Assembly (NCBI GenBank): GCA_001777665.1
Contig: MFEQ01000006.1
Location: forward strand, 278,300-342,299
Length of the DNA stretch: 64,000 nt
Direction: 5' to 3'
From: Candidatus Doudnabacteria bacterium RIFCSPHIGHO2_02_FULL_42_25
GTDB taxonomy: Bacteria; Patescibacteriota; Doudnabacteria; UBA920; O2-02-FULL-48-8
The notes under the pieces are model-generated. The model searched no databases. It had not been told where the DNA came from and saw only the letters and a program-made list of their open reading frames with translations. A program made the position numbers and the translations under genes. Positions 1,412-56,113 of this stretch are shown here, piece by piece; position 1 is the stretch's first letter, and every line of letters begins with the position of its first letter.

Positions 1412-1449
1412 GTATTCGTGATCCTTGTTACGTGATCCGTGTTACGGGA

Positions 1450-2136: not shown

Positions 2137-2164
2137 CGGCCTTTTGGATGTGAACCGAACGCTC

Positions 2165-2289
2165 CCCGCCTGCCACGCCTAATTAAATTTCTTGGTGGAC
2201 GATAGTGGATTCGAACCACTGACCTCGTCGATGTGAACGACGCACTCTAACCAGCTGAGCTAATCGTCCAAGATGGCATGGCGGGCAGG
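2165..2289 (-). repeat. palindromic-element arms CCTGCCCGCCATGCC / GGCGTGGCAGGCGGG flanking a complete tRNA-Val, inserted in the D-loop of the outer tRNA
   Basis: Read on the minus strand, the arms are the same 15-nt pair found in-frame in topA, uvrA and uvrC. Here the 'loop' between them is a whole tRNA gene. Confidence 0.7.
2194..2269 (-). tRNA. tRNA-Val (anticodon CAC)
   Basis: 76-nt cloverleaf GGACGAT-TA-GCTCAGCTGGTTAGAGT-G-CGTCG-TTCACAT-CGACG-AGGTC-AGTGG-TTCGAAT-CCACT-ATCGTCC-A. CCA follows in the genomic sequence. Confidence 0.85.
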
Positions 2290-2314
2290 TAACCCCTGAG
2301 CTACGGATCCAAAC

Positions 2315-2554
2315 TTAGATGCGTCCTTTTAAAAATCTTCGGCCAAAACCGGTTTTAAAATACTTTTCTCGTTTAATAGCATTCTCTTTGCTCAAACAGG
2401 CCTCGTAATATACTAATTCAAACGGGATTCTAGCCTTTGTTGCTTCGACTAAACCTTTATTATGCTTATCTACTCGTTCTTGCAAATCAACAGTCCAGCC
2501 TATATAAAGCTTTAAATCTTTAAGACTTTTTAGTACATAAGTATAGTAAAACAT
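2315..2554 (-). CDS. GIY-YIG nuclease family protein
   Basis: 79 aa. The 'YVLKS…LYIGWTVDLQERVDKHNKG' block is the GIY-YIG catalytic motif. The gene lies directly beside the IR-flanked tRNA insertion. Confidence 0.75.
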   Translation of the reverse strand: MFYYTYVLKSLKDLKLYIGWTVDLQERVDKHNKGLVEATKARIPFELVYYEACLSKENAIKREKYFKTGFGRRFLKGRI

Positions 2555-2567
2555 AACGCTCTAACCA

Positions 2568-2634
2568 GCTGCCCGCCCGCCATCGCAAGCCTGACACTTA
2601 CGCTTTATAACTTGCTCAGGCGTTGCGGGCGGGA
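2568..2634. repeat. intergenic GC-rich palindromic element, long variant, copy A
   Basis: CTGCCCGCCCGCC…GCAAGCC…GGCTTGC-like…GCGGGCGGG. It shares terminal arms with the 51-bp in-frame elements. Confidence 0.7.
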
Positions 2635-2704
2635 GCTAACCGCCCACTGCATTGATTTAACGACTAGTCTTTACAGCTTAGCAGAGACCCCGCATTGAGA
2701 TCAA

Positions 2705-2766
2705 CCTGCCCGCCTTCGCAAGCCTGACACAAATGCTTAAGGCTTGCTCAGAGCGTTGCAGGCGGG
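2705..2766. repeat. intergenic GC-rich palindromic element, long variant, copy B
   Basis: CCTGCCCGCCTTCGCAAGCCTGACAC…GGCTTGCTCAGAGCGTTGCAGGCGGG. It has nested inverted repeats and the same terminal arms as the in-frame copies. Confidence 0.7.
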
Positions 2767-2808
2767 TACTGATTTCGAGTATAATTACAAAGCGAATGTA
2801 AAAAACTG

Positions 2809-4299
2809 ATGAACTATATGAACGACTTTCCTGAACTTCAACAACAATACGCCCCCTCACACCCCAAACGCCATCGTCGTCGATGGAAATGGGTGGTTTT
2901 AATTCTGATCATTCTCGGGATAGCAGGAGGGGTCGCTTTCAAATACCTAACTCAAGCAAATCAAATTTTTACGGGCGACAAAAATATCTTTGCCCGGATC
3001 GGAAATTTGCTCCTAAGCCCGGATAAGGAATTGATTGGAGAGTCGAATGGTCAAATCAATATTCTTTTGATGGGAATCGGAGGCCCCGGACACGAGGGAG
3101 CGCTTCTCACTGACACCATGCTCGTTGCGAACATCAATATACAGACCAACGAAGTGGTGCTCACCAATATTCCTCGAGACTTTATGGTGGATCTCCCGAA
3201 ATATCGGTTACAAAAAATTAATGCAGCTTATGCGTATGCCGAGCGAGATAATCCTGGGACTGGAGGAGAAGCTGCAATCGATGAAATCGAAGCCGTAACT
3301 GGACTTGAGATCCCCTACTACGCTGTGATTGACTTCAAAGGGTTTGTGAAAGGAGTGGATGATGTGGGCGGGCTGGATATTACGATTGACCGCACCTTTA
3401 CTGATGCTTTCTATCCTGATTACAAAAATGGTTATCTCGCCCCAGTGACTTTTACTAAAGGGCCGGAACACATGAATGGCGAACGGGCCTTGATTTTTGC
3501 CCGTTCCAGAAAAGGTAATAATAATGAAGGCTCGGATTTTGCCCGCAGCGAACGACAGAAAAAAATTCTGGTCGCCTTCAAAGAAAAAGTTTTTGCTTTA
3601 AAATTAAATGACCTCAAAACATTAAATAATCTCCTCGGGGCTTTTACTGATAACTTTCGAACTAATATGGAACCTCATGAGCTAAAAAGGCTCACCGATC
3701 TGGGTAGTAAAATCCAAGAACAATCAGTCTATTCATTTTCGCTCGAACCTGATGGGGAATTAGTTTGCTCGGCTCTAATTGATTTAGCCACTGGGAAGCC
3801 ACCAGTGCCGATCGCTGTCCCGCCAACGCCTACACCTCCGCCAGCTGGCGGACCAACTCCAACCCCCAGCCCGTCTCCATCGCCAACGCCTACACCTGAA
3901 GAAGAACCAGAACTAGACAACCCATCGACGACAGCCTACGTCGTCATCCCGTGTGTGGGCAAAACTCTAGCTGACATCCATACCCATCTCAAAGATTCTA
4001 TTTATTTCGCCAAACTCAAAAAAGAATCAGCAATTGTTGAGATACAAAATTCTACAGGCAAAACTGGATTGGCTAACTCACTTTTCGGCACCCTGACCAA
4101 CCTCGGGTTTGAGATTAAATTCACTTCTTTCACGGGTAAAGTCCCGCTCGAGCAGTCAATTATCTATGACAACTCCCATGGGGGCAAGCCCAACACGCTA
4201 GAATATTTAAATTCAAATTATAAGCTAACTATCTCCGACGTTAACTACACCGGCTCTACAGCTGATTTTGTGATAATATTAGGGAAGGATGCTCTCTAA
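2809..4299 (+). CDS. LytR-CpsA-Psr (LCP) family cell-envelope transferase with Pro/Thr-rich linker and C-terminal domain
   Basis: N-terminal TM segment, then an LCP core (GQINILLMGIGG…LTDTMLVANI…IPRD…INAAYA…). A PT-rich linker contains an in-frame PPAGG palindrome. Confidence 0.8.
   Translation: MNYMNDFPELQQQYAPSHPKRHRRRWKWVVLILIILGIAGGVAFKYLTQANQIFTGDKNIFARIGNLLLSPDKELIGESNGQINILLMGIGGPGHEGALLTDTMLVANINIQTNEVVLTNIPRDFMVDLPKYRLQKINAAYAYAERDNPGTGGEAAIDEIEAVTGLEIPYYAVIDFKGFVKGVDDVGGLDITIDRTFTDAFYPDYKNGYLAPVTFTKGPEHMNGERALIFARSRKGNNNEGSDFARSERQKKILVAFKEKVFALKLNDLKTLNNLLGAFTDNFRTNMEPHELKRLTDLGSKIQEQSVYSFSLEPDGELVCSALIDLATGKPPVPIAVPPTPTPPPAGGPTPTPSPSPSPTPTPEEEPELDNPSTTAYVVIPCVGKTLADIHTHLKDSIYFAKLKKESAIVEIQNSTGKTGLANSLFGTLTNLGFEIKFTSFTGKVPLEQSIIYDNSHGGKPNTLEYLNSNYKLTISDVNYTGSTADFVIILGKDAL
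3838..3851. repeat. 14-bp perfect palindrome CCGCCAGCTGGCGG, in-frame, encoding PPAGG
   Basis: Exact palindrome containing a PvuII site, located inside the LCP linker. Confidence 0.8.
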
Positions 4300-6860: not shown

Positions 6861-6910
6861 TTCAAAAAAATTTTGAAACAAAAACCGAAAACCCAATTCC
6901 ATATATCCCA

Positions 6911-7018
6911 GAAGCGAGGTACTTGGTAAAATTAACTCGCGCAGGACGACGGTCCGAGCGCGTAGGCCAAAAATTCAGCAGAATTTTATGGCCGGTAATT
7001 TTACCAACGTACCGAGCG
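6911..7018 (+). ncRNA. ~110-nt conserved structured element, copy 1, upstream of dprA
   Basis: AAGCGAGG…GTAAAATTA.CTCGCGCAGGACGACGGTCCGAGCGCGTAGGCCAAAAATTCAGCAGAATTTTATGGCCGGTAATTTTAC…CCGAGC. Compensatory changes are seen relative to copies 2 and 3. Confidence 0.55.
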
Positions 7019-7205
7019 TAATATTCTTGACCCCACCTCCGAGTGTTGGACTAGTCCGGAAAACCGTACCGGCCCAAACTTGAGGTTACTAGGAAACAAT
7101 AGGAGGGATGCTGCTTCCATTCACCACTCATGAGGTAGGATGAAGAATACTACTGGTTGTATTGTTAATGATACGAATATATAATAATAGCACAAAATCA
7201 CCCTC

Positions 7206-8309
7206 GTGTCAACACTCAATCTATTAGACGAAAAAATCTACGGAAACGCACTAAATTTGATTCCAGCATTGGGTCCAGTCAATTTAACCAAGCTTCTCAA
7301 CTACTGTGGGGGTTTTCTCAAGGCCTGGAATGCTGATGGACAAGATTATTTCAACGCTGGGATCTCGCCGAAAACTGTCGATAAGATTATAACAGATAAA
7401 CAAAAAATCAATCCAGAGCAATCATTCGCCGAAACTACTCGAAGACAAATCGAAATTTTGCTGATTTCTGAAAAATCGTATCCGCAATTGCTAAAAGAAA
7501 TTATTCCGGCGCCACCTCTGCTTTATGTCCGCGGCAATAAAAAAGTTTTGAATTCGCTAACAGTCGCTGTAGTCGGCACACGCAAAATCTCGAGCTACGG
7601 CACGATGGCTTGTGAAGAAATTACACTCGGTCTCACAAACAGTGGCATGACGATTGTTTCTGGACTAGCATACGGCGCCGACGCTGTAGCTCTCCAGACA
7701 GTAGTTGATAATCGTGGTAAAGGCATCGCCGTGCTGGCTTCTGATCTCAACGACACGAGTATTGCGCCGCGGTCAAATTTTAATCTAGCTCAAAAAATCC
7801 TAGAAAAAGGGTGTCTGGTTTCTGAATACCCGCTGGGCTACAGCGTACAAAAACAAAATTTCCCTATTCGTAATCGAATCATTTCTGGTTTAAGCCTCGG
7901 CACACTAGTTGTCGAAGCTGACATCGAAAGTGGAGCGCTGATCACGGCTAATTATAGTTTAGAACAAAATCGGGAAGTATTCGCTATACCCGGATCTATT
8001 TTTTCACCAACCAGTCGGGGCACGAATCAGCTCATCAAATCCGGAGCGAAAGTCGTGACTTCGGCCAATGATATTTTGGAAGAGCTGAATTTAGACACTG
8101 AAATTGTGGAGGCTCAAACCAACAATATCGAAATTACAGAAATCGAAAGCAAAATTCTGGAATTGCTTTCAAAAATCCCGATTCATATCGATGAGATTAT
8201 CAAATCTGCACAGGTCAATCCAGCGATCATCAGTGCGAATTTGACTCTGTTGGAAATAAAAGGCCGGATAAAAAATCTCGGAGGCGCGAAGTATGTTAAA
8301 ATTCGTTAG
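7206..8309 (+). CDS. dprA: DNA processing protein DprA (Rossmann-fold DNA-protecting protein, SMF family)
   Basis: The block VAVVGTRKISSYG…SGLAYGADAVALQ…FPIRNRIISGLSLGTLVVEA is the SMF/DprA signature. GTG start. Confidence 0.85.
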   Translation: MSTLNLLDEKIYGNALNLIPALGPVNLTKLLNYCGGFLKAWNADGQDYFNAGISPKTVDKIITDKQKINPEQSFAETTRRQIEILLISEKSYPQLLKEIIPAPPLLYVRGNKKVLNSLTVAVVGTRKISSYGTMACEEITLGLTNSGMTIVSGLAYGADAVALQTVVDNRGKGIAVLASDLNDTSIAPRSNFNLAQKILEKGCLVSEYPLGYSVQKQNFPIRNRIISGLSLGTLVVEADIESGALITANYSLEQNREVFAIPGSIFSPTSRGTNQLIKSGAKVVTSANDILEELNLDTEIVEAQTNNIEITEIESKILELLSKIPIHIDEIIKSAQVNPAIISANLTLLEIKGRIKNLGGAKYVKIR

Positions 8310-9396
8310 TCGTTTTACGTCAGCGCCACGCGTATCGGTTAACGTTAGACGATACGCGCAGCGCAGCCTTATAACGCTCACCGTGATTCTTCTCGTTCTT
8401 TTAATAGTTGTCTTTCTAAGTCCTAAAACTGCCCTAGGGCCAAAAACTGATAACCAAAAACCAAACCAACTTCCAAAACCTCCAACCACTACCCTGTTTT
8501 TTGCGGGTGACATCATGCTTTCGCGCAATGTCGCAGGCAAAATTTATACAGCCAACGACGTTCATCTCCCTTACTTAAACGTCAGTGAGAAAATTTTATC
8601 CGCTGATATTGCTTTTGCGAATCTAGAATCTCCGTTTAATAGCCAAGGAGATCATTCAGTCCAGAACAGTTTGATATTCAACGCTGATCCGAAATTCGCG
8701 GATGGACTATCAAATGCTGGTTTTGATATTTTATCTACAGCCAACAACCATTCGTTTGATCAGGGTAAATCCGCAATCGAATTTACGAGGGTCACCCTCG
8801 TAAATAATAATCTCGTGTCAGTTGGCACAGGAGTAGACTGTCACAGCGGAAAAATTATAGAAAAAAATCAGATCAAATTTGGATTTTTGGCTTACTCTTA
8901 TGCCGCACACAATGATGGTGGTAAAATTCCAGATCCTCTGGTTTGCGACTGGAATGATGAACAACAAATTGTTGCTGATATTCAGGCCATGCGGCCACAG
9001 GTCGATTTTTTGATCGTTTCCGCGCATATAGGCACTGAATACAAGCGAGTTCCAGACGAAGACAATGCATTGCGAGCGCGCAAAACCATAGATGCCGGAG
9101 CGGATTTATTTATCGGCCACCATCCACACTGGATCCAAACGATTGAGCAATATCAAGGTAAATGGATTTTCTATTCTTTGGGCAATTTTGTATTCGATCA
9201 AATGTGGAGCCAAGATACAAAAGAAGGTTTGACTATTACTGTCACACTTGAAGAAAAAGCGATCAAAAAAATCGAACTTAATCCGGTAGTTATCGAAAAT
9301 TATTGTTGTCCCATATGGGCTGATGACATGGAAAGTTTGGCCATCTTAAAGAAGATTGGCTTGACAACTAGAGTTTTATTAGGTGAAAATAAGTGA
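8293..9396 (+). CDS. CapA/PgsA-family metallophosphatase-like protein (poly-gamma-glutamate capsule synthesis family)
   Basis: FFAGDIM…FANLESP…ANNHSFD…SAHIGTEY…GHHPHWIQ…GNFVFDQ motifs are present. The exact start is uncertain because a palindrome lies at the 5' end. Confidence 0.75.
   Translation: MLKFVSRFTSAPRVSVNVRRYAQRSLITLTVILLVLLIVVFLSPKTALGPKTDNQKPNQLPKPPTTTLFFAGDIMLSRNVAGKIYTANDVHLPYLNVSEKILSADIAFANLESPFNSQGDHSVQNSLIFNADPKFADGLSNAGFDILSTANNHSFDQGKSAIEFTRVTLVNNNLVSVGTGVDCHSGKIIEKNQIKFGFLAYSYAAHNDGGKIPDPLVCDWNDEQQIVADIQAMRPQVDFLIVSAHIGTEYKRVPDEDNALRARKTIDAGADLFIGHHPHWIQTIEQYQGKWIFYSLGNFVFDQMWSQDTKEGLTITVTLEEKAIKKIELNPVVIENYCCPIWADDMESLAILKKIGLTTRVLLGENK
8321..8364. repeat. palindromic element, family 3, copy 1
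   Basis: CAGCGCCACGCGTATCG-GTTAACGTTAGA-CGATACGCGCAGCGCAG. A near-identical copy lies at 15165-15210. Confidence 0.7.
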
Positions 9397-46972: not shown

Positions 46973-48718
46973 ATGAGTAATATCTGGTTACAAATCAAAA
47001 ACTTTTTTCGCAATTTTTGGTTGGGAATACGAACATTGCGAACCCTGCGCCGAGGGCAGATTCCTCATATCCTCGAAAACTTTTCGAAAAAAGAATTCTA
47101 TACATTTATCGCCACCTTATTCTTCCTTGTGATCAGCGGTGGTTTTTTACTTGTCCAAGCATTTGCCGAAAAGGGTCCAGGCCCTCACTATGGTGGCGAA
47201 ATCGTGGAAGGGCTGGTGGGTCAACCTCAATTTATAAACCCACTTCTATCGCTAACCAGCAGCGTCGACACCGATGTCAGTCGAGTGGTCTATGCTCAGT
47301 TACTCAAATTTGATCAAGAACAAAATTTGACCACGGATTTAGCAGAAAGCATACCGACCGTAAGTGAAGACCAAAAAACTTATACTCTGAAACTAAAACC
47401 GAATCTTAAATGGTCAGATGGTAAGCCTCTCAATGCTGACGACGTCTTGTTTACCATCCAACGAATTCAAAATATCGAGTATGAATCCCCGCTTCGCCCG
47501 AACTGGTCTCGGGTCAAAGCCGAAAAAATTGATGATTTGAGTATTCAACTTACATTGCGCGAAGTTTCAGCAAGCTTCATGAACAATTTTACACTAGGCA
47601 TCATCCCGAAACACATCTGGGAAGAGCTCTCCCCTCGGAATTTCCGACTTTCTGACTCCAACCTCAAACCAATTGGCTCAGGACCATACACTGTGCGCGA
47701 AATTCGTAAAACTTCTGATGGTGACATCAAATCTATCACTTTGCGTGCCAACCAAAACTATCACGAAGGCTCTCCATATATCACGACTCTGACCTTCAGG
47801 TTTTACGATGACTACGATAGTTTGCTTGCAGCATACCAAGGCAAAGAAATCCAGAGCATAGGGTTTTTGCCATTTGATAAAAAAGCATTTCTATCCCAAT
47901 CCGATCGTGTAAATCAATACCGAGTCAACCTGCCCCAGTACCAAGCCGTATTTTTTAATCTCCCGAAGAATTCCATCCTCGCCGAAAAAGCTGTCCGTCA
48001 AGCGCTATGGCTCGCCACAGACCGCAACCAAATCATCACAGAAGTATTCAATGACAATGCCGCTCCCGCATTCGGTCCCATCTTACCGGGGAGTATGGGA
48101 TACAACGAAAAAATTGAAGAAAGTGTCCACTACAATCTCGATGAAGCAGTGATATTGTTAGAAAAGGCTGGATGGGTACTTCCACCTAACTCAACTGTGC
48201 GTGCCAAAAAAGATAAATTGTTAGAATTTAATTTAGCGCTCTCAGGAAATTTGGTTTTAAATGTCAAAACCGCGCAGCTACTCCAAAGCCAGTGGGAAAA
48301 AATCGGGGTTAAAATAAATTTAATTCCAGTCGGACCTGATGAACTCGAAACTGATTTCATCAGACCCCGCGCATTTGATGCATTACTTTTTTCTGAAAAT
48401 GTCGGGGCTGATCCAGACCCATTTCCATTCTGGCATGGGACCCAACGCAACGACCCTGGTCTCAATCTTTCTGGGTTTGTAAACACAGAAGCTGATAAAT
48501 TACTCACAGATGCCAGACAAACCATCGACGAAGCAACTCGGGTCAAAAATTATTTACGGTTCCAGGAAATTATCAATGATGAACTGCCTGCGATCTTTCT
48601 AGCCCGTTCTCTCTATATCTACAATGTCCCGAAAAAAATCCAGGGCATTAACCTCGACAATATCGTCAGCCCAGCTGACCGCTTCCTCGACATTAAGAAC
48701 TGGTATTTTAGTAACTAA
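46973..48718 (+). CDS. ABC transporter substrate-binding protein, family 5 (peptide/nickel type)
   Basis: N-terminal TM anchor followed by an SBP_bac_5-like core. Confidence 0.75.
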   Translation: MSNIWLQIKNFFRNFWLGIRTLRTLRRGQIPHILENFSKKEFYTFIATLFFLVISGGFLLVQAFAEKGPGPHYGGEIVEGLVGQPQFINPLLSLTSSVDTDVSRVVYAQLLKFDQEQNLTTDLAESIPTVSEDQKTYTLKLKPNLKWSDGKPLNADDVLFTIQRIQNIEYESPLRPNWSRVKAEKIDDLSIQLTLREVSASFMNNFTLGIIPKHIWEELSPRNFRLSDSNLKPIGSGPYTVREIRKTSDGDIKSITLRANQNYHEGSPYITTLTFRFYDDYDSLLAAYQGKEIQSIGFLPFDKKAFLSQSDRVNQYRVNLPQYQAVFFNLPKNSILAEKAVRQALWLATDRNQIITEVFNDNAAPAFGPILPGSMGYNEKIEESVHYNLDEAVILLEKAGWVLPPNSTVRAKKDKLLEFNLALSGNLVLNVKTAQLLQSQWEKIGVKINLIPVGPDELETDFIRPRAFDALLFSENVGADPDPFPFWHGTQRNDPGLNLSGFVNTEADKLLTDARQTIDEATRVKNYLRFQEIINDELPAIFLARSLYIYNVPKKIQGINLDNIVSPADRFLDIKNWYFSN

Positions 48719-48739
48719 CCTGATAAAATATTAAACACT

Positions 48740-49273
48740 ATGAAATGCCCAAATAATCACGAATCATTTCAAGAAATTAAATTTGGCAACGTAAAAGTTG
48801 ATCGATGTTCTGAGTGCGAAGGATTGTGGTTTAACCATGATGAATTGAGACAGGCTAAAGACGTCCAAGATGAGTATGCCAAGTGGTTTGATGTGGATCT
48901 TTGGAAAGATGAAAAAGATTTTAAATCAACATCGAGTACCAAACTCTGTCCGATCGACAACGTTCCTCTGTATGAAATCGATTATGGTAATTCGGGAGTT
49001 AAAATTGATGCCTGTAAAACTTGCCAAGGGATTTGGTTAGATAAAGATGAATTCAAACACTTGATAGATTATATAAAAAAAAGCTATCCGTACGATCTGG
49101 CCTTTAATTATACGAAATCTATTCTTGAAGAAGGTAAAGAAATCTTTACTGGTCCAGAAAGTTTAAAATCAGAAATTACAGATTTCTTATTACTGGTAAA
49201 ACTCGTTCAGTTTAAAGTTTTTATAAGTCCTACGCTAACTAACGTCATTCTGAATCTGCCTCTGACAAAATAA
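48740..49273 (+). CDS. tandem zinc-ribbon domain protein
   Basis: Two CP..H…C.EC / CP…C.TC ribbon modules are present. Confidence 0.55.
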   Translation: MKCPNNHESFQEIKFGNVKVDRCSECEGLWFNHDELRQAKDVQDEYAKWFDVDLWKDEKDFKSTSSTKLCPIDNVPLYEIDYGNSGVKIDACKTCQGIWLDKDEFKHLIDYIKKSYPYDLAFNYTKSILEEGKEIFTGPESLKSEITDFLLLVKLVQFKVFISPTLTNVILNLPLTK

Positions 49274-49281
49274 AGTTTTCA

Positions 49282-49352
49282 GGGTACGTGGCGGAATCCC
49301 GGTAGCAGACGCTTCGCGTCGCTACGGGGCAGGCTGGAATATTTATCCCGTA
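49282..49352 (+). other. tRNA-like fragment (acceptor-like GGGTACG … CCCGTAC)
   Basis: GC-rich and partially foldable. It shares its acceptor-stem sequence with the truncated tRNA-like element at 49487-49558. Confidence 0.3.
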
Positions 49353-49369
49353 CTAAATTTTGCAAGTAT

Positions 49370-49456
49370 GCTCGAGTGGTGGAACTGGCATACACGTACG
49401 CTTCAGGAGCGTATGACCGCAAGGTCGTGGGAGTTCAAATCTCCCCTCGAGCACCA
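49370..49456 (+). tRNA. tRNA-Leu (anticodon CAG), class II with long variable arm
   Basis: GCTCGAG…TACGC-TTCAGGA-GCGTA-(long variable arm)-GGAGTTCAAATCTCC-CCTCGAGC-A-CCA. Confidence 0.85.
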
Positions 49457-49486
49457 AAATCAATTTGATAACTCAGCAAAATTTTA

Positions 49487-49558
49487 GTACGGAGCGCGCA
49501 CGCTTCAGGAGCGTGTGGGAGCAATCCCGTGAGAGTTCAAATCTCTCCGTACCCGCCA
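49487..49558 (+). other. truncated tRNA-Leu-like partial duplicate
   Basis: It lacks a D-arm. The anticodon arm CACGC-TTCAGGA-GCGTG is a copy of the tRNA-Leu arm. A variable arm and a T-arm are present. Confidence 0.4.
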
Positions 49559-49577
49559 AAATAATACATTTACCCAT

Positions 49578-49628
49578 CCCGGACTTGACCTGCCTGCCGG
49601 CAAGCAGGTCCGGGATCTTCTTTTTTTT
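49578..49628 (+). terminator. rho-independent terminator
   Basis: CCCGGACTTGACCTGC-CTGCC-GGCAAGCAGGTCCGGG followed by T8. Confidence 0.8.
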
Positions 49629-49859
49629 GTGGGGTTTCCAGCATTTATATCGCATCTGCGAGCGACTGCTTTATCGATAAAGCGTTAACCTGGGCAGTCG
49701 CGTGGCAGTCTAAAACCCAAGCCAACCATGAGTCAGATTGCTTCGTCGGTGCCTAAGCTAATCCCTTAAGGACAAAGCACCTCCTCGCAAATGCGGTGGG
49801 TTCTCCAACCCTGATGGAACAAGGATATAATTGCATTAGCAATATTAACCCTTGTAACC

Positions 49860-50654
49860 ATGATCGCAGCATTAAACCAAATCCCCTCAGAAGCCAAGAT
49901 TAAGAAACAATTAAGGCTAATCATCTTTGGTCAGAACGTTTCATGTCCCCATTGCCGGTCTAGAAGAATCATTGTTTTTGAGAAGCGATATCGTTGCAGA
50001 AGATGCCGGAAACGATTTAGCCTGTTGTCAGGTACCTGGCTTGCTGATATGAAAATTTCCCTCAGAACAATGTATGCGCTACTCTGGTGTTGGACCCAAA
50101 GGATTCCGGTATTGCAAACAGAGAAACTCTGTCATCTCTCAGAAAAGGCAGTCAGACACTGGTTTAGGGTCTTTAGGCTCCATTTGCCCCAGGTAGAGGC
50201 CGTTCTAGAGGGGAAGGTCCAAATGGATGAAGCATACTTTAAGAATCTTTCTCTGATCATGGCCAAACAGGTTGGCAGCAAACACCTAGCCCATCAGATG
50301 ATATTTAAAAACTCCGTAGACAAGACTGAAACAGCAAGATTCCTTTTCCATTGGGTCAAGCCTAACAGTAAACTGCAAACCGATGGCGGGGCGATGTACA
50401 AAAAGATTGACCAGTGGTGGCAAGTCAAGCATCGAGTTGATATTCATAAAAGATTCGAATTTGGCTTAACCTCAGAGATCGAAGGGATGTTCGGGAACTT
50501 AAGAACATTTATCCGAAGAATGTATCACCACACCAGCCCTGAATACTTACCAGAGTACGTGAGTGAATTCTGCGTCAGATTTTCCTCACCGGAAATCTTT
50601 AGTTCACCCAATGATTACTTATCTAAAACATTAAAGCCTGTTCCAACACGGTAG
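49860..50654 (+). mobile_element. IS1595-family (ISXO2-like) transposase gene
   Basis: N-terminal zinc ribbon (CPHCRS…CRRCRKRF) and a DDE core with a 'VQMDEAYF' motif are present. It lies between the tRNA-Leu cluster and a GC-rich island. Confidence 0.7.
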
Positions 50655-50838
50655 GATTACCCAATGCGGTCGTCTTGACAAAACCGCCAAAAAGGTGTAT
50701 AATTGTTGGTCAAAATAGAAAAACGAGCTTAGCAATTTGCGCATAAAATATTTATGCTTAAGATGCTCAGCTTGTGGTGATCCATATGAGGTGGATACAC
50801 AAGGGAGTCCTGGCTCAGGTAGAGCGATTACGGAGGAG

Positions 50839-51168
50839 ATGGAAATGGCATTGAAGCTCGACGAGATGAAAGCGTCTGCAACGAGTCAGTTCGAGAAACT
50901 CGTCCTCGAGAAATTCGAATTCATGTGCAACCATGTCTACGCAAGCAACATCAAGCACTACCTCGACGAGGTGAACGAGCTGATCAGGGCCGCCCGGAAG
51001 CTCCATGTGACCGAGTCATCGACGTTCGGTGACGATGAGATCAAGACGGCAGTCGATGACCTCGCGGCTTTGCGAACGTTGAAGATGAACGACGAGACGC
51101 GTGCCTATCTCACCCCGCTCTTCGAACTGCACGGTCTGGACAGCATCATCGCGCAGCCCAAGAAGTAG
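50839..51168 (+). CDS. hypothetical protein (GC-rich island)
   Basis: SD GGAGGAG before the ATG. GC content ~57%. Confidence 0.5.
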   Translation: MEMALKLDEMKASATSQFEKLVLEKFEFMCNHVYASNIKHYLDEVNELIRAARKLHVTESSTFGDDEIKTAVDDLAALRTLKMNDETRAYLTPLFELHGLDSIIAQPKK

Positions 51169-51343
51169 CTCGACGGGCGAGCGTGTCGCAGACACGCTCG
51201 CCTCCCCTTTCTCAAGTTTTCATTAAATTGCAGTTATGTTCATTGTTACGTGATTCTTGTACATGACTTTAGTCCAATGAGCGCTTACATAGGCTCAGAC
51301 GTTCTCAAAACCGGCTTTCTCTGCCACCTAAGGAGGGCTAGAG

Positions 51344-51610
51344 ATGAATTTAATTCGACGTTTCGTGGAAGCCTTTCGGCTGACCCTGCTTCGTCTGGAA
51401 TTGGCCCTACTCAAGTGGGATTGGACCGATTGCACGAATCGGATGATCGCGATCGGCAAGGCTATGGACGAGCTTTTTGAGGCCCGGCCCAAAGTTCCCG
51501 ATTTTGACAAGCAGGTCACTTACCTTCGCGTGCAATATCATGCCACCGTTAGTCTCAGGAACGAGGCTGAAAAACGGATCAACGCAATCAAGCGCAACAA
51601 TCCGCTTTAG
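51344..51610 (+). CDS. hypothetical protein (GC-rich island)
   Basis: SD AAGGAGGG. 88 aa. Confidence 0.5.
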   Translation: MNLIRRFVEAFRLTLLRLELALLKWDWTDCTNRMIAIGKAMDELFEARPKVPDFDKQVTYLRVQYHATVSLRNEAEKRINAIKRNNPL

Positions 51611-51649
51611 GGTTACCATTCAACCGCAACACTTTCAGGAGACTCGCAA

Positions 51650-52513
51650 ATGACACGCATTCTCTCCCTCATCGTCCTCCTTGTCCTCGGCTTCGCGTTC
51701 ACGGTCTCGGCGCAGGAGCGCGTCACGATCACGCCGGTTCTCGAGTTCGGCAACTACAGCCACAGCGTCGACACCAGCGAAGGAGCCTCCGGATACGCCA
51801 GCACCGTATCGAAGCACAGCACGGTGCAGAAAGGCTTCGAAGTCCGGATGATCGGCAACGCTCGCTGGTCGACGAAGCTCCGCTTCACCACTGGTGGTAT
51901 CGACACCCCGAAGTACCGGCTGCAGTACAACGACGGTCGGGTCGACTCGTCCGGTTACTTCGAGAACACCACGAACGCACTGTTCGAGTTCAACGGAAGC
52001 AGCCGCGTTCTGGAAGCCATGGGCGAATACAGCCGCGGTCCGCTCACCTACCGATTCGGTGTTGGGTATCGCTTGCTGGAAACCGAGGATGCCGGGACGA
52101 TTTACGAGTTCTCTGGGTTCTCAGGGTTTAGCCGCGACGTTCGGAGCACAATCAGCGAAAGCTTCTTTGCGCCGAAGGTCGGCATCACTGCCAAGCATCG
52201 GTTCAACAAGCTCACTCCTCACGCGACAGTTGATCTCGCTCCGATGATCCGGCATGCCGGCCACTACACTTACCGTAGCGAAGGGTATCCGGACTACGAA
52301 AAGACCGGATCGACTTGGTCGTCGCGCGGACTCGATGTGGACCTCGGTGCGAGCTACTCAGTCCACAAGTACGTCGCGGTTGGCGCCGGTTGGCGGTATT
52401 CACGGATCTACACGGAGCGAACGGACTACCTGTTCACGAATCCGTACGGGCCGTCATTCCCCAACAACGACACCTGGGGAGGCCCATACTTCTCAGTCCG
52501 ACTCCAGAAGTAG
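51650..52513 (+). CDS. predicted outer-membrane beta-barrel protein with signal peptide (GC-rich island)
   Basis: A cleavable signal peptide ends …VSA|QE. Alternating hydrophobic beta-strand pattern, aromatic girdle residues and a C-terminal …YFSVRLQK are present. Confidence 0.5.
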   Translation: MTRILSLIVLLVLGFAFTVSAQERVTITPVLEFGNYSHSVDTSEGASGYASTVSKHSTVQKGFEVRMIGNARWSTKLRFTTGGIDTPKYRLQYNDGRVDSSGYFENTTNALFEFNGSSRVLEAMGEYSRGPLTYRFGVGYRLLETEDAGTIYEFSGFSGFSRDVRSTISESFFAPKVGITAKHRFNKLTPHATVDLAPMIRHAGHYTYRSEGYPDYEKTGSTWSSRGLDVDLGASYSVHKYVAVGAGWRYSRIYTERTDYLFTNPYGPSFPNNDTWGGPYFSVRLQK

Positions 52514-52543
52514 TTCGGTTCATCTCGTTCAACGTTTCCCCGA

Positions 52544-52582
52544 GGCGGACGCGCGCAAGCGCTGTCCGCCTCTTCTTTTTTT
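52544..52582 (+). terminator. rho-independent terminator, island copy 1
   Basis: GGCGGACGCGCGCAAGCGCTGTCCGCC followed by a T-run. Confidence 0.8.
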
Positions 52583-52644
52583 AATTGTTGATTAAAGCTG
52601 CAAAAAATGCTATAAATTATAGTTCGTCAACAAGGAGGAAGACG

Positions 52645-53931
52645 ATGCATTGGTCACAGAAAAACGAAGACTCACACTTCGAGTACACCCAGAGCCTTCG
52701 CGATCAAGCACTGGGTCGAATCCTATGGGGTAAAATTCTGCTAGTGGCAGCAGCAGTATTTGTCGCAGTTCCATTCACAGTGGAGCGCGGCACCTGGGCC
52801 GCCGGAGTACTGGCTTTGATCCAGTTCGGGTTCATCTCCATCGGCTGGCGGCTGATCTACTTCAACCGTGTGACATTGTTCGACCTTCGGGATCGGTTTT
52901 GTTCTCGTAAGCTTATTCCCGAATCCCGTAGGTTTCGCAGGCTCAATCCGAGGGTCCACATTTGGATCCCAAAGATGAAGATCTTCTGCAAAACCAACGA
53001 CCTTCGGGAACTGGAACAGCGGTTTCTCGATTATCTTCACCGGGAGTTCCGACTCTTTCAGCATGAAGATCAACTCCATAAATGGGTGCCTATCAATAAC
53101 CGACTTTGGGAAGATCTTGAAGTCGATCTCCGCACCCGCTTCTATCTCAAAGAGGAGACAATCGACGAAATCTTCGCGAAGTGGAAGACGAGTCCCCCTC
53201 AGCCAGCGCGACGGAAGCAGTTTGTCCAAAAACTTACTGCTGCCCTAGAACACAAACAGTTCACACTCCGCTTGCAACGGCCGAAAGTGAACTCTGACTC
53301 CGCTGGTGAGAAAGTTGCTCCTGCTGCACCTTTTGATCCTATAGTGTTCTATGAACTGGAAGCGTCAAACGCCGTGAAGCCTGAAGCAATTGCACTTTAC
53401 AAACGCGGACTAAATGAACCCGAACGAAGGAAAAAAATCCGGTTATTCAAACAGGCGACTTGGATTGAGCGCCAATCTGAAAAACAGGAACCAGTACCCC
53501 TACAGGCTGACGTTAACCAGTTTTCGGCAACACCTCGAGAAGTTGAAGTTTTGGACCTCAGTGGTCTGATCGAGGAGCAGCTGTCGAAATTCATTCGCCC
53601 AGGTATCGATCCACGGATGGCAGTGGAAATCCTCATGGTCCTGGCTTCTCCAAGGCGTCGATTCAGGATCTGGGGTGATGAAACGGTCTTGGTTCGTCGG
53701 ATTCGTCGACGTTATGAAATTACCACCGGAAAACCATTTGAGCTGAGTACTCTTCGCAACACACTCAACTGGTTATCTGGCATTGGCGTCGTGATTTCAG
53801 AACCGGCGAAGTCCAATACTGTCGTCTACCACATCCCACGAAACTCTTCGTCAGCCCGAACTGACGAAGCGAAAGAGCTGATTCGAACAGTGTCAAAACT
53901 GCGAGAACTTCTCATTTCTGGGAAATACTAA
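52645..53931 (+). CDS. hypothetical protein with N-terminal TM hairpin (GC-rich island)
   Basis: SD AAGGAGGAAG. The likely start is the Met at 52645 (MHWSQ…). No recognised domain. Confidence 0.5.
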   Translation: MHWSQKNEDSHFEYTQSLRDQALGRILWGKILLVAAAVFVAVPFTVERGTWAAGVLALIQFGFISIGWRLIYFNRVTLFDLRDRFCSRKLIPESRRFRRLNPRVHIWIPKMKIFCKTNDLRELEQRFLDYLHREFRLFQHEDQLHKWVPINNRLWEDLEVDLRTRFYLKEETIDEIFAKWKTSPPQPARRKQFVQKLTAALEHKQFTLRLQRPKVNSDSAGEKVAPAAPFDPIVFYELEASNAVKPEAIALYKRGLNEPERRKKIRLFKQATWIERQSEKQEPVPLQADVNQFSATPREVEVLDLSGLIEEQLSKFIRPGIDPRMAVEILMVLASPRRRFRIWGDETVLVRRIRRRYEITTGKPFELSTLRNTLNWLSGIGVVISEPAKSNTVVYHIPRNSSSARTDEAKELIRTVSKLRELLISGKY

Positions 53932-53936
53932 ACTCA

Positions 53937-53975
53937 GGCGGACGCGCGCAAGCGTGTCCGCCTCTTTTCTTTATT
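53937..53975 (+). terminator. rho-independent terminator, island copy 2 (near-identical to 52544-52582)
   Basis: GGCGGACGCGCGCAAGCGTGTCCGCC followed by a T-run. Confidence 0.8.
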
Positions 53976-53979
53976 TGCG

Positions 53980-54088
53980 GAAGCGAGGCACTTTGTAAAA
54001 TTAGCTCTCGCAGGACGACGGTCCGAGAGCGCAGGCCAAAAATTCAGCAGAATTTTATGGCCGGTAATTTTACAACAGTGCCGAGCTG
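53980..54088 (+). ncRNA. ~110-nt conserved structured element, copy 3, upstream of rnj
   Basis: It aligns with copies 1 and 2 and directly abuts the -35 box of the rnj promoter. Confidence 0.55.
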
Positions 54089-54092
54089 TTAT

Positions 54093-54121
54093 TGACAATT
54101 CGCGCGGCTGGGTGTATAATA
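54093..54121 (+). promoter_or_regulatory. sigma70 promoter for rnj
   Basis: TTGACA, a 17-nt spacer, then TATAAT. Confidence 0.7.
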
Positions 54122-54247
54122 TATCTACATTGAATTACTCTTGAAAAAGTAAATAATCTAGTTAATACGATAAAGTTCGTATTTTTTGTGGATTTTCTTG
54201 TGTTAACTAGCGCTCAAGCCTTGGGTCAAGCCCTGCTTCGCGCTTGT

Positions 54248-54325
54248 CTACGAAGTACGAAAAGCTACGAAAATACGAAAAAGGTTAACCACTTCGTAAT
54301 TTCGTAAAAAATTCGTACTTCGTAG
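54248..54325. repeat. TACGAA×4 / TTCGTA×4 palindromic element in the rnj leader region
   Basis: CTACGAAGTACGAAAAGCTACGAAAATACGAAAAAGGTTAACCACTTCGTAATTTCGTAAAAAATTCGTACTTCGTAG. Confidence 0.75.
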
Positions 54326-54364
54326 ATAAAATTTACCATTAGCATTAACACAAGAATAAATTTT

Positions 54365-56113
54365 ATGATTTTGCGTAAACAGCAAAACACCGCGGTTGCA
54401 ACACGACCGCAAGAACAAAAAGCGACTCCGCCAGCTGGCGGAAAAGCGACTTTAAAGGTCATCCCTCTCGGAGGTATCGAAGAAGTCGGGGAAAACATGA
54501 CAGTCCTAGAATATGGCGATGATATTCTCGTCATCGATATGGGACTTGGGTTCCCTGACGAAACCATGCCCGGGATCGACTACATCATTCCAAATACCAA
54601 ATATTTGGAAGATAACAAAAAGCGCATCAAAGGAGTAATTATTACTCACGGTCACTTGGACCACATAGGAGCCATTCCCTACATCATGCCGAAAATTGGC
54701 GATCCGCCAATCTACACCATGAAATTAACCGGTGAGCTGATTAAGAAGCGTTTGGAAGAATTCCATTTGCTCGGTCGCTCCCAGATTCATGAATTGAACA
54801 AAGACGATATTTTGACTTTGGGCAATTTCAGTATTCGATTTTTCCGAATCAACCACAACATCCCTGATGGTGTGGGGCTGGCGATCAAAACTCCAGCAGG
54901 ATTGCTGGTCTACGCTACTGACTGGAAATTCGATCACACACCAGTCGATGGTCGTCCATCAGAATTCGACAAACTAGCCAACTATGGCGGTGAGGGTGTG
55001 GCTCTGCTCATGTCAGATTCCACTAACGCCGAAAAGCCAGGCTATTCTATGTCTGAGAAAACTTTGGGAGAAACAATTGATCGGATTTTGCAAGATGCCA
55101 AAGGCCGTGTCATTTTCGCGACTTTCTCTACTCTGATTTCTCGTATCCAACAAGTTATCGATGCGGCTCACAAATCTAATCGCAAATTAGTAGTGACTGG
55201 ACGCTCCATGGTCAACAACATCGAAATTTGTTTGGCTACAAATTACCTGACGCTACCTGCTAAAGGTATGATTATAAAAATGGAACAAGCCAAAAAGCTT
55301 CCAGATAATCAAGTCGTCATTCTCACCACGGGTTCTCAAGGTGAAGAAGCAGCAGCCCTGGCTCGTATCGCGCGCAACGAGCACAAAACCATCCAGGTCA
55401 AAAAGGGAGATACTTGTGTAGTCTCAGCGAACCCAATTCCAGGGAACGAACGATCGGTTTCTTCCGTGCTTTCCAACCTGGCACGTCTGGGTGCTCGAGT
55501 TATCTATAATAAAAATCTAGACATTCACACTTCTGGACACGCTTATCAAGAAGATTTGAAGCTGATGATTGCTTTGACCAAACCCAAATTCTTCATGCCG
55601 ATTCACGGCGAGCATCACATGTTAGTGGCGCACGCCAATATCGCTTCGTCCGTCGGGATTCCCGATGATAACATCTTTACTCTGGACAATGGTCAGATGT
55701 TGGAACTAAGCACCACTGGAGTCCAGGTTCTGGAAGCCAAAATTCCAACTGGTTATGTTTTCGTCGATGGCCTGGGTGTTGGTGACGTCGGTGAAGTCGT
55801 CCTTCGCGACCGCCAAGTCATGGCCCAAGACGGCATGTTCGTCATCATTATGAAAATTGAACGCAACACCGGTAAAATTTCAGGACAACCTGACATTATC
55901 TCTCGCGGCTTTATCTATATGAAAGGATCAGAAGATCTGCTCAAAGAAGTAAAGCATGAAGTCAGAAAAGTTGTCGAAAGCAAAGGCAATGGCAAAGTCA
56001 AAGAACCCAACTGGGCCTATATCCGTTCCGAGGTTCGCGACCAAATCGGCGAATTTCTCTTCCAACGAACCGAACGCCGCCCAATGGTTTTGCCAGTAGT
56101 CATCGAGGTCTAA
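54365..56113 (+). CDS. rnj: ribonuclease J (metallo-beta-lactamase / beta-CASP RNase)
   Basis: HGHLDHIG motif, a beta-CASP region and a C-terminal domain are present. The N-terminal tail carries the in-frame PPAGG palindrome. Confidence 0.9.
   Translation: MILRKQQNTAVATRPQEQKATPPAGGKATLKVIPLGGIEEVGENMTVLEYGDDILVIDMGLGFPDETMPGIDYIIPNTKYLEDNKKRIKGVIITHGHLDHIGAIPYIMPKIGDPPIYTMKLTGELIKKRLEEFHLLGRSQIHELNKDDILTLGNFSIRFFRINHNIPDGVGLAIKTPAGLLVYATDWKFDHTPVDGRPSEFDKLANYGGEGVALLMSDSTNAEKPGYSMSEKTLGETIDRILQDAKGRVIFATFSTLISRIQQVIDAAHKSNRKLVVTGRSMVNNIEICLATNYLTLPAKGMIIKMEQAKKLPDNQVVILTTGSQGEEAAALARIARNEHKTIQVKKGDTCVVSANPIPGNERSVSSVLSNLARLGARVIYNKNLDIHTSGHAYQEDLKLMIALTKPKFFMPIHGEHHMLVAHANIASSVGIPDDNIFTLDNGQMLELSTTGVQVLEAKIPTGYVFVDGLGVGDVGEVVLRDRQVMAQDGMFVIIMKIERNTGKISGQPDIISRGFIYMKGSEDLLKEVKHEVRKVVESKGNGKVKEPNWAYIRSEVRDQIGEFLFQRTERRPMVLPVVIEV
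54428..54441. repeat. CCGCCAGCTGGCGG palindrome in-frame (PPAGG) in the rnj N-terminal tail
   Basis: Exact copy. Confidence 0.8.

Follow-up and report, generated by a model that had tools for sequence, protein, structure and literature searches.

Genes for structured RNAs can be interrupted in several known ways. Bacterial rRNA intervening sequences (IVS) reside in helices 25 and 45 of the 23S rRNA, from which they are cut out by RNase III without re-ligation, and archaeal disrupted tRNA genes either contain non-canonical introns with a bulge-helix-bulge (BHB) motif in their D or T loops (Thermoproteales) or are split (Nanoarchaeum), in both cases being spliced by an endonuclease, so that the interrupted gene is functional. 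We know of no precedent for like-in-like insertion, in which a tRNA gene targets its cognate tRNA gene. Here, we describe such an arrangement, a tRNA-Leu(CAG) gene nested within an older tRNA-Leu(CAG) gene and followed by an insertion sequence (IS) and a GC-rich island, in a stretch of 64,000 nucleotides (nt) (MFEQ01000006.1, positions 278,300 to 342,299; hereafter, the window) from a metagenome-assembled genome of Candidatus Doudnabacteria, members of the candidate phyla radiation (CPR)/Patescibacteria, from Rifle groundwater. Among CPR bacteria, short "insertion sequences" that are not introns have been described in rRNA genes (PMC11270868), and group I introns have been reported in tRNA genes of Patescibacteria (PMC13011429).

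We propose, with about even chances of being right, that the nest belongs to an undescribed CPR class of hairpin-armed, non-autonomous cassettes, each of which would carry a complete tRNA gene and insert, exactly to the base, into the D loop (position 21/22) or the anticodon loop (33/34) of a gene for the same tRNA, killing and replacing it. Repeated rounds would give rise to Russian-doll genes and to horizontal turnover of alleles, the same arms would ferry other cargo to 16S rRNA genes and intergenic DNA, and the fixed 8- to 9-nt offset of an accompanying hairpin would betray a new chemistry of insertion.

Like rRNA IVS and the CPR rRNA insertions, the cassette in the window is a short, extended stem-loop that interrupts a structured-RNA gene precisely at a loop, and such elements are likewise noncoding and sporadic among relatives, with same-armed elements occurring in 16S rRNA (L150; loci other than the window are given by L numbers). 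It differs from rRNA IVS in that the host is a tRNA gene, the tip carries a tRNA of the same specificity, and the host gene decays rather than staying functional; its arm sequences, TTTACCCCGCAC and GTGCGGGG, are not mentioned in the description of the CPR rRNA insertions (PMC11270868). The likeness to archaeal disrupted tRNA genes lies in breaks in the D, anticodon, and T loops, sometimes multiple and with complementary flanks; the Doudnabacteria nest, however, is bacterial, lacks a BHB motif, contains a tRNA within the insert, and has an interrupted gene that degenerates. The group I introns share with the cassettes the phylum and a location in tRNA genes that escapes standard annotation, but they are self-splicing ribozymes of 200+ nt in the anticodon loop (PMC13011429), whereas the cassettes have no group I signature in Rfam, lie mainly at D-loop position 21/22, and carry a tRNA as cargo.

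Anatomy of the tRNA-Leu(CAG) nest

All parts of the nest lie on the plus strand. Its innermost gene, presumed to be the working one, is an intact tRNA-Leu(CAG) with A73 and an encoded CCA at 49370-49456, where a first-pass annotation made from the sequence alone had already placed it, and is called by ARAGORN as well as by Rfam (51.5 bits). This gene forms the center of a 153-nt cassette (49342-49494), flanked by a left arm and spacer (TTTATCCCGTACTAAATTTT GCAAGTAT; 49342-49369) and by a right spacer and arm ending in AAAATTTTAGTACGGAG (49457-49494), with the left arm forming an inverted repeat with 49479-49492 (14 nt, 93%) and the arm helix reaching ~15 bp. Around it are the parts of an outer, older tRNA-Leu(CAG): nt 1-15 (GGGTACGTGGCGGAA) at 49282-49296, nt 16-23, i.e., the remainder of the D loop (CTGGAATA), at 49334-49341, and nt 24-87 (CGCGCACGC...CGTACCCGCCA), from the 3' strand of the D stem to the CCA and including discriminator base G73, at 49495-49558 (nhmmer, hidden Markov model [HMM] positions 24-87, E 4e-15). 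The first two of these parts are separated by a second insert, H1, a 37-nt hairpin in the outer D loop (49297-49333; -13.1 kcal/mol, z -4.2) that ends in GGGGCAGG and sits 8 nt upstream of the cassette.

Joined to each other, the three outer parts are called by ARAGORN as a complete, 87-nt tRNA-Leu(cag). Removing both inserts (49297-49333 and 49342-49494) therefore restores the gene, while removing the larger one alone does not. The cassette is inserted exactly after outer nt 23, at the junction of D loop and D stem (canonical position 21/22), with neither duplication nor loss, and presents the extended stem-loop at the loop of a mature RNA that is typical of rRNA-type IVS. The predicted fold of the whole 277-nt unit (z -6.3) places one cloverleaf inside another, with the outer acceptor stem closing the structure, and the unit is followed by an intrinsic terminator (49576-49630, plus strand) with a 13-bp stem and a T run (z -4.2). 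We regard both the anatomy of the nest and the exactness of the insertion as firmly established.

The first-pass annotation had taken 49282-49352 and 49487-49558 for two separate partial duplicates of the tRNA, the second reusing the Leu anticodon arm and lacking a D arm, and had seen in them the classic footprint of repeated integration. They are, instead, the 5' and 3' parts of a single older gene. The tRNA-like, D-armless appearance of the second piece is real, with Rfam scoring 49487-49552 below threshold (22.5 bits versus a gathering score of 29) and a 66-nt direct repeat (49395-49460 versus 49497-49562, 76% identical) covering the tRNA from the anticodon to the 3' part, but the piece is not a duplicate of its own; it looks as it does because it combines the 3' 64 nt of the outer gene with a GTAC palindrome of the cassette arm that mimics a 5' acceptor strand.

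With regard to integration, the classic footprint is that of an element with an integrase, at whose far side the tRNA 3' end recurs as a direct repeat, and within tRNA genes, integrases are known to use three sublocations (anticodon loop, T loop, and 3' end); the D loop, where this insertion point lies, is not known to be one. Attachment-site remnants, left behind by repeated integrase-mediated integration and excision of islands at tRNA-Leu, would be in keeping with a hotspot of variable cargo, and one relative, L026, does show the classical pattern. The pieces in the window, however, are complementary halves (nt 1-23 and 24-87) rather than repeated 3' ends, and what lies between them is no island but a whole tRNA gene within the D loop of another. 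Moreover, no integrase was found in the window island or in the tested cargo open reading frames (ORFs), and a contig with an uninterrupted tRNA, L004, carries the very same island, all of which makes an origin of the pieces as such remnants very improbable. In L026 (2382-6447), an intact tRNA, itself nested, is followed 4 kb downstream by a 3' fragment of tRNA-Leu (HMM positions 30-87), the two bracketing an AAA_14/DUF4143 ATPase and an SNF2 helicase.

An uninterrupted allele

Contig L004 contains, at 1154-1240, an intact copy of the outer tRNA-Leu allele of the window, differing from it at one D-loop base. From base 49495 onward, the window is 100% identical to this contig over 13 kb, IS and island included; since the same IS and island thus follow an uninterrupted tRNA, cassette and island are independent events. 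The upstream 1.15 kb of L004 stems from a different lineage and resembles no Doudnabacteria locus, and the contig may be chimeric or recombinant.

That assemblies differ at exactly this point, together with the metagenomic origin of the sequences, might suggest that the nest is an assembly artefact in which two co-occurring strains with different tRNA-Leu alleles were merged. The identical nest is nevertheless present in at least 20 independent contigs (NCBI, JGI, and ENA) obtained with different assemblers, the same architecture recurs in dozens of unrelated loci and samples, and the conserved arms belong to neither tRNA. A merger of this kind is thus extremely improbable.

Ending 12 nt before the uninterrupted tRNA-Leu(CAG) of L004 is a free-standing ORF of 194 amino acids (aa) (L004:558-1142) that is of the LAGLIDADG type and has two LAGLIDADG-like motifs; no relatives of it were found in the other loci. 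Judging from its sequence, it is a candidate homing endonuclease that might act on the tRNA-Leu locus.

Fate of the outer gene

If the outer tRNA-Leu were still made, either with the insert excised and the ends ligated or as two pieces joined through the acceptor stem and the arm helices, the cassette would be a functional intervening sequence and one transcript would yield two isodecoders. Such an arrangement would suit the placement of all inserts in loops (D, anticodon, and T), exact to the base, as well as the foldable outer cloverleaf, the almost intact outer sequences of the window, and the presence of same-armed elements in a 16S rRNA gene, where removal or tolerance would be needed; self-splicing tRNA introns are, besides, known in Patescibacteria (PMC13011429). 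It would not explain why outer copies decay in most relatives, and a functional outer gene would make like-in-like cargo unnecessary. A permissive Rfam search of 48700-54500 found tRNA alone, without a group I or group II ribozyme core or any other Rfam family, and at the nest junctions (...GGAATA/TTTATCCC and ...ACGGAG/CGCGCA) no 3-4-3 BHB motif could be drawn by inspection, the predicted fold being a continuous arm helix. Mismatches in the arms lack a G.U bias, which argues against selection on the sense RNA. Finally, the outer, GGGTACG-type allele has G73 (window 49555, L004:1237), in place of the A73 found in 27/27 intact syntenic tRNA-Leu(CAG) genes. In Escherichia coli, A73 is a major identity element for leucyl-tRNA synthetase (LeuRS). 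Overall, we think it unlikely that the outer gene still yields a tRNA. In L004, the G73 allele is the sole tRNA-Leu at the locus, so that either LeuRS tolerates G73 there or that gene is impaired as well.

Recurrence and decay among Doudnabacteria

Relatives of the locus were sought via RNase J, which gave 80 loci, in 27 of which the gene order is kept: a gene for an SBP_bac_5 solute-binding protein (SBP5; window 46973-48718) on the left of tRNA-Leu(CAG) and the RNase J gene (window 54365-56113) on its right. With a profile of 28 intact tRNA-Leu genes, extra 5' or 3' tRNA-Leu fragments were detected around the intact gene in 14/28 loci, window and L004 counted. The GCTCGAG-type cassette of the window, comprising arms, spacers, and tRNA, is also present in L015 and L012, both of which have hairpins related to H1 at the same position. 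L012 has three layers, a hairpin and a GGGTACG-type cassette having in turn entered the tRNA of its cassette at the same two positions. Outside these nests, arm motif TTYAYCCCGYAC occurs, in 1.5 Mb of related loci, only once, in a Parcubacteria genome, where it bounds a non-tRNA insert.

Most outer copies are degraded, with a contiguous 3' part retained in 3 of the 14. The anticodon arm has been lost in L020 and L032, the anticodon is mutated in L015, acceptor pairs are broken in L040 and L027, and in four loci (L012, L019, L027, L031), hairpins are found in the anticodon and T loops of outer copies. Recurrence of the nests and decay of the outer genes are both firmly supported by these comparisons. 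Additionally, the acceptor-stem types of tRNA-Leu(CAG) are scattered over Doudnabacteria species irrespective of RNase J similarity, as horizontal replacement of alleles predicts.

Several further observations concern these relatives. L009, L011, and L015 have the tRNA-Leu gene inverted with respect to SBP5 and RNase J, the inversion in L015 comprising the entire nest. One hairpin type of dead outer anticodon loops (TCCGCCTTCG...CGGCGGACARG) recurs at L011:10739-10768, L032:12056-12085, and L007:12116 and at window 63191-63200 (minus strand); its copies in L011 and L032, and probably that in L007, adjoin an A/T run and resemble intrinsic terminators, and hairpin sequences seem to be reused or copied in these genomes. 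Apparent variation in L088 was dismissed as scaffold Ns and a frameshift.

The window itself contains a second nest, that of a tRNA-Val(CAC) gene (2110-2310, minus strand), with the inner tRNA at 2193-2269 and the outer one formed by 2290-2310 and 2110-2164. There, the cassette is inserted in the outer D loop after nt 21 and has arms (CCTGCC.../...GGCAGG) unlike those of the Leu cassette, and the joined outer flanks again give a complete gene, a 76-nt tRNA-Val(cac) according to ARAGORN. Rfam reports a sub-threshold tRNA (27.1 bits) at 2113-2179. No target-site duplication was found at either the Leu or the Val nest of the window, deletion of the inserts restoring the exact tRNA, and the tRNA-Lys gene at 16618 shows no nest. 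The called ORF at 1450-2136 overlaps the 3' part of the outer tRNA-Val and probably starts at the ATG at 2100.

A wider family of hairpin-armed cassettes

A metagenome scan for the exact pattern TTTACCCCGCAC-N95-125-GTGCGGGG returned at least 120 loci, and the nest and arm statistics below hold among the matches listed. At least 20 tRNA nests are present, of tRNA-Leu (CAG, CAA, TAG, and GAG) and tRNA-Pro (CGG), those of Pro having their insertion in the anticodon loop, at 33/34. Outer and inner anticodons agree in 16/19 readable nests (counted manually from the listing), and in five nests, deletion of the cassette alone restored a tRNA for ARAGORN. Every tRNA-carrying copy inspected lay within a tRNA of the same amino-acid family, none being seen free in intergenic DNA, and we consider this like-in-like rule firmly established. 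At intergenic sites, the same arms bound non-tRNA cargo, some copies being nested in each other (L143, L122), and in L150, an element with TTTACCCCGCAC/GTGCGGGG arms (2582-2697) lies inside a 16S rRNA gene (1296-3015, Rfam). Four loci (L138, L175, L119, and L059) have a similar context, ...ACAAAACC-insert-TGCTCA, the flanks of L138 and L175 resembling the 5' end of 16S rRNA (the Rfam check concerned L150).

A hairpin ending in GGGGCAGG, the sequence with which H1 ends, is found 7 to 10 nt upstream of the cassette in 10/22 tRNA nests, Leu as well as Pro, and in 0/108 non-tRNA copies. In 16 related loci, Rfam detected tRNA and 16S rRNA only and no family matching cassettes or hairpins, and a full-text literature search found no description of nested tRNA genes or of TTTACCCCGCAC/GTGCGGGG arms.

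Arm helices measure 8 to 24 bp, with a median of 14 bp, in 123 distinct elements. Sequence conservation is confined to the outer 8 to 12 bp; over positions 9-16, the 123 elements have 92 different 8-mers while retaining complementarity. Since the deeper arms vary yet stay complementary, they suggest that an enzyme acting in trans recognizes a hairpin or cruciform formed by the DNA. As to the level at which the arms pair, 6 of their mismatches are G.U and 14 are A.C, and this lack of a G.U excess points to pairing in DNA rather than in sense RNA. No recurrent transposase or recombinase was found within 3 kb of 120 cassette copies.

In these properties, the family resembles MITEs (miniature inverted-repeat transposable elements), REPINs, and integron attC sites: its members are small, noncoding, and multi-copy (at least 120 metagenome copies), have terminal inverted repeats with conserved ends and variable but complementary inner stems, and nest in one another (L143, L122). 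Recognition of a hairpin is probably common to them as well. Unlike those elements, the cassettes show no duplication at tRNA and rRNA sites, have no transposase, RAYT protein, or integrase found with them, and carry their cargo inside the palindrome.

Other identities of the arms were considered and discarded. Mimicry of a tRNA acceptor/CCA minihelix was rejected because the CCA following the left arm is not conserved, and ends of the IS200/IS605 type, with insertion 3' of TTTAC, do not fit the tRNA nests. L112 and L135 turned out to be real type I-E-like CRISPR arrays that match the scan pattern by chance, the remaining matches not being arrays; the resemblance of their repeat stem (CCCCGCAC GTGCGGGG) to the cassette arms is probably a coincidence.

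Insertions on the 3' side of the tRNA

While the order of the flanking genes is conserved in the 27 syntenic relatives, the DNA following tRNA-Leu ranges from 0.24 to 5.9 kb and carries unrelated cargo, in agreement with the earlier view of the site as an insertion hotspot. Other Doudnabacteria have different cargo there, often GC-rich ORFan secreted proteins (L007, L008, L015); in five relatives, none of the 10 largest cargo ORFs, which were those tested, is an integrase. Unrelated signal-peptide ORFans with a GC content at third codon positions (GC3) of 0.72 to 0.93 are located at L007:8801-9664, L008:8258-9406, and L015:8759-9595 and 6895-8415.

In the closest relatives with an empty site (L016 and L013), the RNase J promoter lies within 15 nt of the tRNA. 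Given that homology to the window resumes at ~54085, the ~4.5 kb from 49559 to 54085 constitute extra DNA. The right edge of this variable segment is marked by the RNase J promoter (54092-54120, plus strand), the first sequence again shared with relatives in an alignment with L016, L013, and L009.

The first component of the extra DNA is a complete IS of the IS1595 family (49790-50670, plus strand). A search for its ends around 49700-50700, as the first-pass annotation had recommended, located inverted repeats at 49798-49823 and 50637-50662 (20/26 positions match), which delimit an element of 865 bp (49798-50662) flanked on both sides by an exact 8-bp target duplication, AATGCGGT (49790-49797 and 50663-50670). 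The transposase (49860-50654, plus strand, 264 aa), suspected from the outset to be IS1595/ISXO2-like, matches PF12762 (DDE_Tnp_IS1595, E 5.8e-13), PF12760 (Zn_ribbon_IS1595, E 9.3e-8), and, above the cutoff of 75, NCBIfam NF033547 (transpos_IS1595, 78.7 bits). With its N-terminal zinc ribbon, DDE domain, terminal inverted repeats, and 8-bp duplication, the element is thus a regular member of the family, albeit a very small one (865 bp, 264 aa), whose alignment to the Pfam DDE profile is limited to the C-terminal two thirds of that profile. IS and duplication can both be considered firmly identified.

Only 5 bp separate the insertion point of the IS from the -35 box of a sigma-70-type promoter downstream (50675-50703, plus strand; TTGACA-17-TATAAT, 12/12 matches), which opens the GC-rich island and is 27/29 identical to the promoter preceding a homologue of the island's barrel gene in L094. 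The spacer of this promoter, TTGACAAAACCGCCAAAAAGGTGTATAAT, is conserved before barrel homologues (L094, L095) as well as before an unrelated, GC-rich gene pair in L007, and cargo modules may share a common promoter cassette.

Four ORFs follow on the plus strand, all of them, as first annotated, with Shine-Dalgarno sequences (AGGAG/GGAGG) and raised GC: O1 (50845-51168, 107 aa, GC3 0.80), O2 (51344-51610, 88 aa, GC3 0.62), O3 (51650-52513, 287 aa, GC3 0.77), and O4 (52645-53931, 428 aa, GC3 0.52), with GC contents of 0.55, 0.51, 0.59, and 0.50, respectively, versus 0.43 in the rest of the window and 0.434 in the window overall, and with N-terminal membrane helices in O4. Compared to the genes flanking the island (GC3 0.44 to 0.48), codon usage is foreign, above all in O1 and O3. 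The suggested high-GC donor was not found, homologues of O3 occurring only in low-GC, CPR-like contigs.

O1, O2, and O4 remain proteins of unknown function, as first described. None matches Pfam or PHROG, and comparisons of some of them with NCBIfam, PADLOC, the PDB, phages, and IMG/VR gave nothing meaningful; weak matches of O1 to Cas12a and Nnf1 were set aside as helical low-complexity noise. Although O1 belongs to no known family, L092 encodes a homologue (41% over 68 aa, E 9e-17) upstream of its barrel homologue and also has the hairpin that follows O1. No homologue of O2 was found, and O4 is an orphan, with a search of 5.8 billion proteins returning itself and a 92% variant only. In tblastn searches and scans, O3 had no match in phages, plasmids, and IMG/VR and O4 none in phages and IMG/VR, so that a phage or plasmid origin is unsupported.

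O4 is bracketed by two near-identical terminators, a 38-nt direct repeat whose left copy lies at 52543-52580 and whose right copy lies at 53936-53972 (both plus strand). Their core, GGCGGACGCGCGCAAGCG, occurs exactly twice in the 64 kb, at 52544 and 53937 (chance expectation, 0.02), and both fold with z ~ -5.6. The duplicated terminators noticed in the first-pass annotation are therefore genuine and do enclose the last gene, but they do not bound the GC-rich island as a whole. On account of its near-host GC3 and its position between the repeats, we read O4 as a later addition.

The IS, O1 to O4, and the gene for a double zinc-ribbon protein on the other side of the tRNA are present in 0/27 syntenic relatives, and the island genes were not found in the 80 related loci, so that the comparison of sister genomes revealed none carrying the same genes at the same GC content. 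That relatives lack the island and that its codon usage is biased are firm findings. No recombinase domain is detected in any ORF of 49559-54085 (Pfam, NCBIfam), no tRNA-Leu fragment lies between 49559 and 54364 (nhmmer, tRNA-Leu profile), where the 38-nt terminators are the only repeats, and the search for attachment-type direct repeats at the island borders gave a T-rich 16-mer only, probably by chance. It thus resembles tRNA-associated genomic islands in being variable foreign DNA of atypical GC directly 3' of a tRNA, with cargo that differs per relative, and departs from them in its small size (~3.3 kb plus the IS) and in lacking an integrase and a direct repeat of the tRNA 3' end. We consider it likely that the conserved SBP5/tRNA-Leu(CAG)/RNase J junction was struck by several independent insertions, namely, tRNA cassette, foreign island, O4 segment, and IS.

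The double zinc-ribbon gene (48740-49273, 177 aa), located between SBP5 and the tRNA, has a GC content (0.34) and a GC3 (0.30) below those of the genome; given its absence from all 27 syntenic relatives, it is another lineage-specific insertion, on the upstream side of tRNA-Leu. At the other end of the locus, the RNase J leader (window 54120-54364, ~250 nt) is kept across Doudnabacteria (TTGTGTTAAYTAG block), contains an 18-nt inverted repeat (54244-54261/54312-54329, 94%), and may be a regulatory 5' untranslated region.

A predicted barrel protein in the island

O3, annotated in the first pass as an outer-membrane barrel with a signal peptide, is indeed predicted to be a 10-strand beta-barrel of the outer-membrane type, rather than a soluble beta-sandwich. 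A single-sequence AlphaFold2 (AF2) model was unusable (pLDDT 35); with a 7-sequence alignment, the model reached a pLDDT of 83.4 and a pTM of 0.77 and shows an N-terminal helix (residues 2-13) and antiparallel strands of 18 to 24 residues, along which hydrophobicity alternates. In a Foldseek search of the PDB, the ten best matches, and 13/16 of the best, are 10-strand outer-membrane barrels (probability 1.0), among them Pla, OmpT, OpcA, and Legionella porin I (E 1e-11 to 1e-6, TM 0.5 to 0.6; for Pla, OmpT, and OpcA, E 1e-11 to 1e-8 and TM 0.55 to 0.62). The only Pfam match of O3, to PF13505 (OMP_b-brl), is below threshold (20.0 bits, cutoff 28.7). O3 is like omptins (OmpT, Pla) and OpcA in predicted fold, size, and Sec signal peptide; it differs in having no omptin Pfam match, 10 to 13% identity in structural alignments, a basic C terminus, and a host lineage thought to be without an outer membrane.

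An exhaustive HMMER search of 1.84 billion representatives found six homologues (28 to 41% identity), none of them in a GC-rich genome; word-indexed protein search returned near-identical copies only, and a renewed search with the 7-sequence profile added P0009 alone. In the five homologue loci for which DNA was available, the gene has a GC content of 0.54 to 0.60 and a GC3 of 0.69 to 0.79, against flanks with a GC content of 0.42 to 0.47. A neighboring gene in L091, L094, and L095 matches the window or another locus of the CPR-dominated set analyzed here, and in the two contigs with enough flank, the barrel homologue adjoins a tRNA gene (tRNA-Ser in L091, tRNA-Gln in L095). At the tRNA-Leu site, L007 encodes a GC-rich secreted protein, likewise of 287 aa, that gives a weak hhalign profile match to the barrel family (probability 23%). 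The family is, all in all, a curiosity: tiny, confined to CPR-like contigs, and with a GC3 in each copy far above that of its host.

This distribution also bears on whether the GC-rich genes might be native, their composition reflecting amino-acid content or expression level, with O3 being a secreted, soluble beta protein. All O3 homologues do lie in CPR-like, low-GC contigs, none having turned up in a GC-rich genome among the 1.84 billion representatives; O3 lacks a C-terminal aromatic residue, and Patescibacteria/CPR are considered to be without an outer membrane (PMC12102498). However, the GC excess resides at third codon positions (0.77 to 0.80 versus 0.44 to 0.48), the genes are missing at this site in 27 relatives, and long antiparallel strands, alternating hydrophobicity, and PDB matches to outer-membrane barrels speak for a membrane barrel, which renders native genes with a soluble product quite unlikely.

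A possible course of events

Of the components of the locus, the nested tRNA cassettes stand out as the most unusual; IS and tRNA-side island are of ordinary kinds. In the scheme that we favor, a non-autonomous, 153-nt cassette would have inserted after nt 23 of the resident tRNA-Leu(CAG), splitting and inactivating it, and the cassette's tRNA would have taken over its function, amounting to the selfish replacement of a gene by its own kind. A trans-acting enzyme would recognize the arms as a DNA hairpin or cruciform. A single transcript would cover the whole unit and end at the terminator at 49576-49630, and RNase P and 3' processing would release the inner tRNA, probably aided, by analogy with rRNA IVS, by cleavage of the 15-bp arm helix, leaving the outer halves as waste. 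On the 3' side, a foreign module consisting of promoter, O1, O2, O3, and terminator would have been extended later by the O4 segment, the IS landing 5 bp upstream of the module promoter.

Several points weigh against this scheme. The outer gene of the window is barely decayed, with one D-loop change, its inactivation being deduced from its split state, its G73, and the decay seen in relatives, and the intact allele of L004, possibly on a chimeric contig, proves that such an allele exists and not that it exists in the strain of the window. The cassette's mobility is read from comparative data, neither an enzyme nor an excised form nor a target duplication having been found. At 36/81 (~45%) of the non-tRNA copies, again among the matches listed, TTTA is present on both sides, resembling a target duplication; as this is not the case for tRNA and rRNA inserts, more than one mechanism may operate. 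The fixed offset of 8 to 9 nt between H1-type hairpin and cassette in Leu and Pro nests is not explained by two independent insertions. For the island, no donor lineage, integrase, or attachment repeat was found, and the barrel depends on an AF2 model from 7 sequences, in a family with C termini (K/R/G/P) that lack the aromatic beta-signal.

Implications

For CPR biology, these nests mean that the tRNA annotation of genomes hides layers of dead genes, and they connect disrupted tRNA genes with the short insertions of CPR rRNA genes that have long lacked an explanation. They also provide a bacterial counterpart to the archaeal debate on broken tRNA genes, and the TTTACCCCGCAC...GTGCGGGG arms constitute a sequence handle for finding the responsible enzyme. 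The barrel family, in turn, raises the question of what role an outer-membrane-type barrel has in a lineage thought to be without an outer membrane; one idea is that O3 inserts into the membrane of the host bacterium that carries the episymbiont. In a bolder variant, should the outer genes still be expressed, the cassettes would be introns of bacterial tRNAs that are tRNAs in their own right, the first of this kind. Mobility of the cassettes, if real, would give a selfish element a new way to become indispensable, by destroying an essential single-copy gene and supplying its sole replacement, and such replacement, if true, would account for the scatter of acceptor-stem types over Doudnabacteria irrespective of phylogeny.

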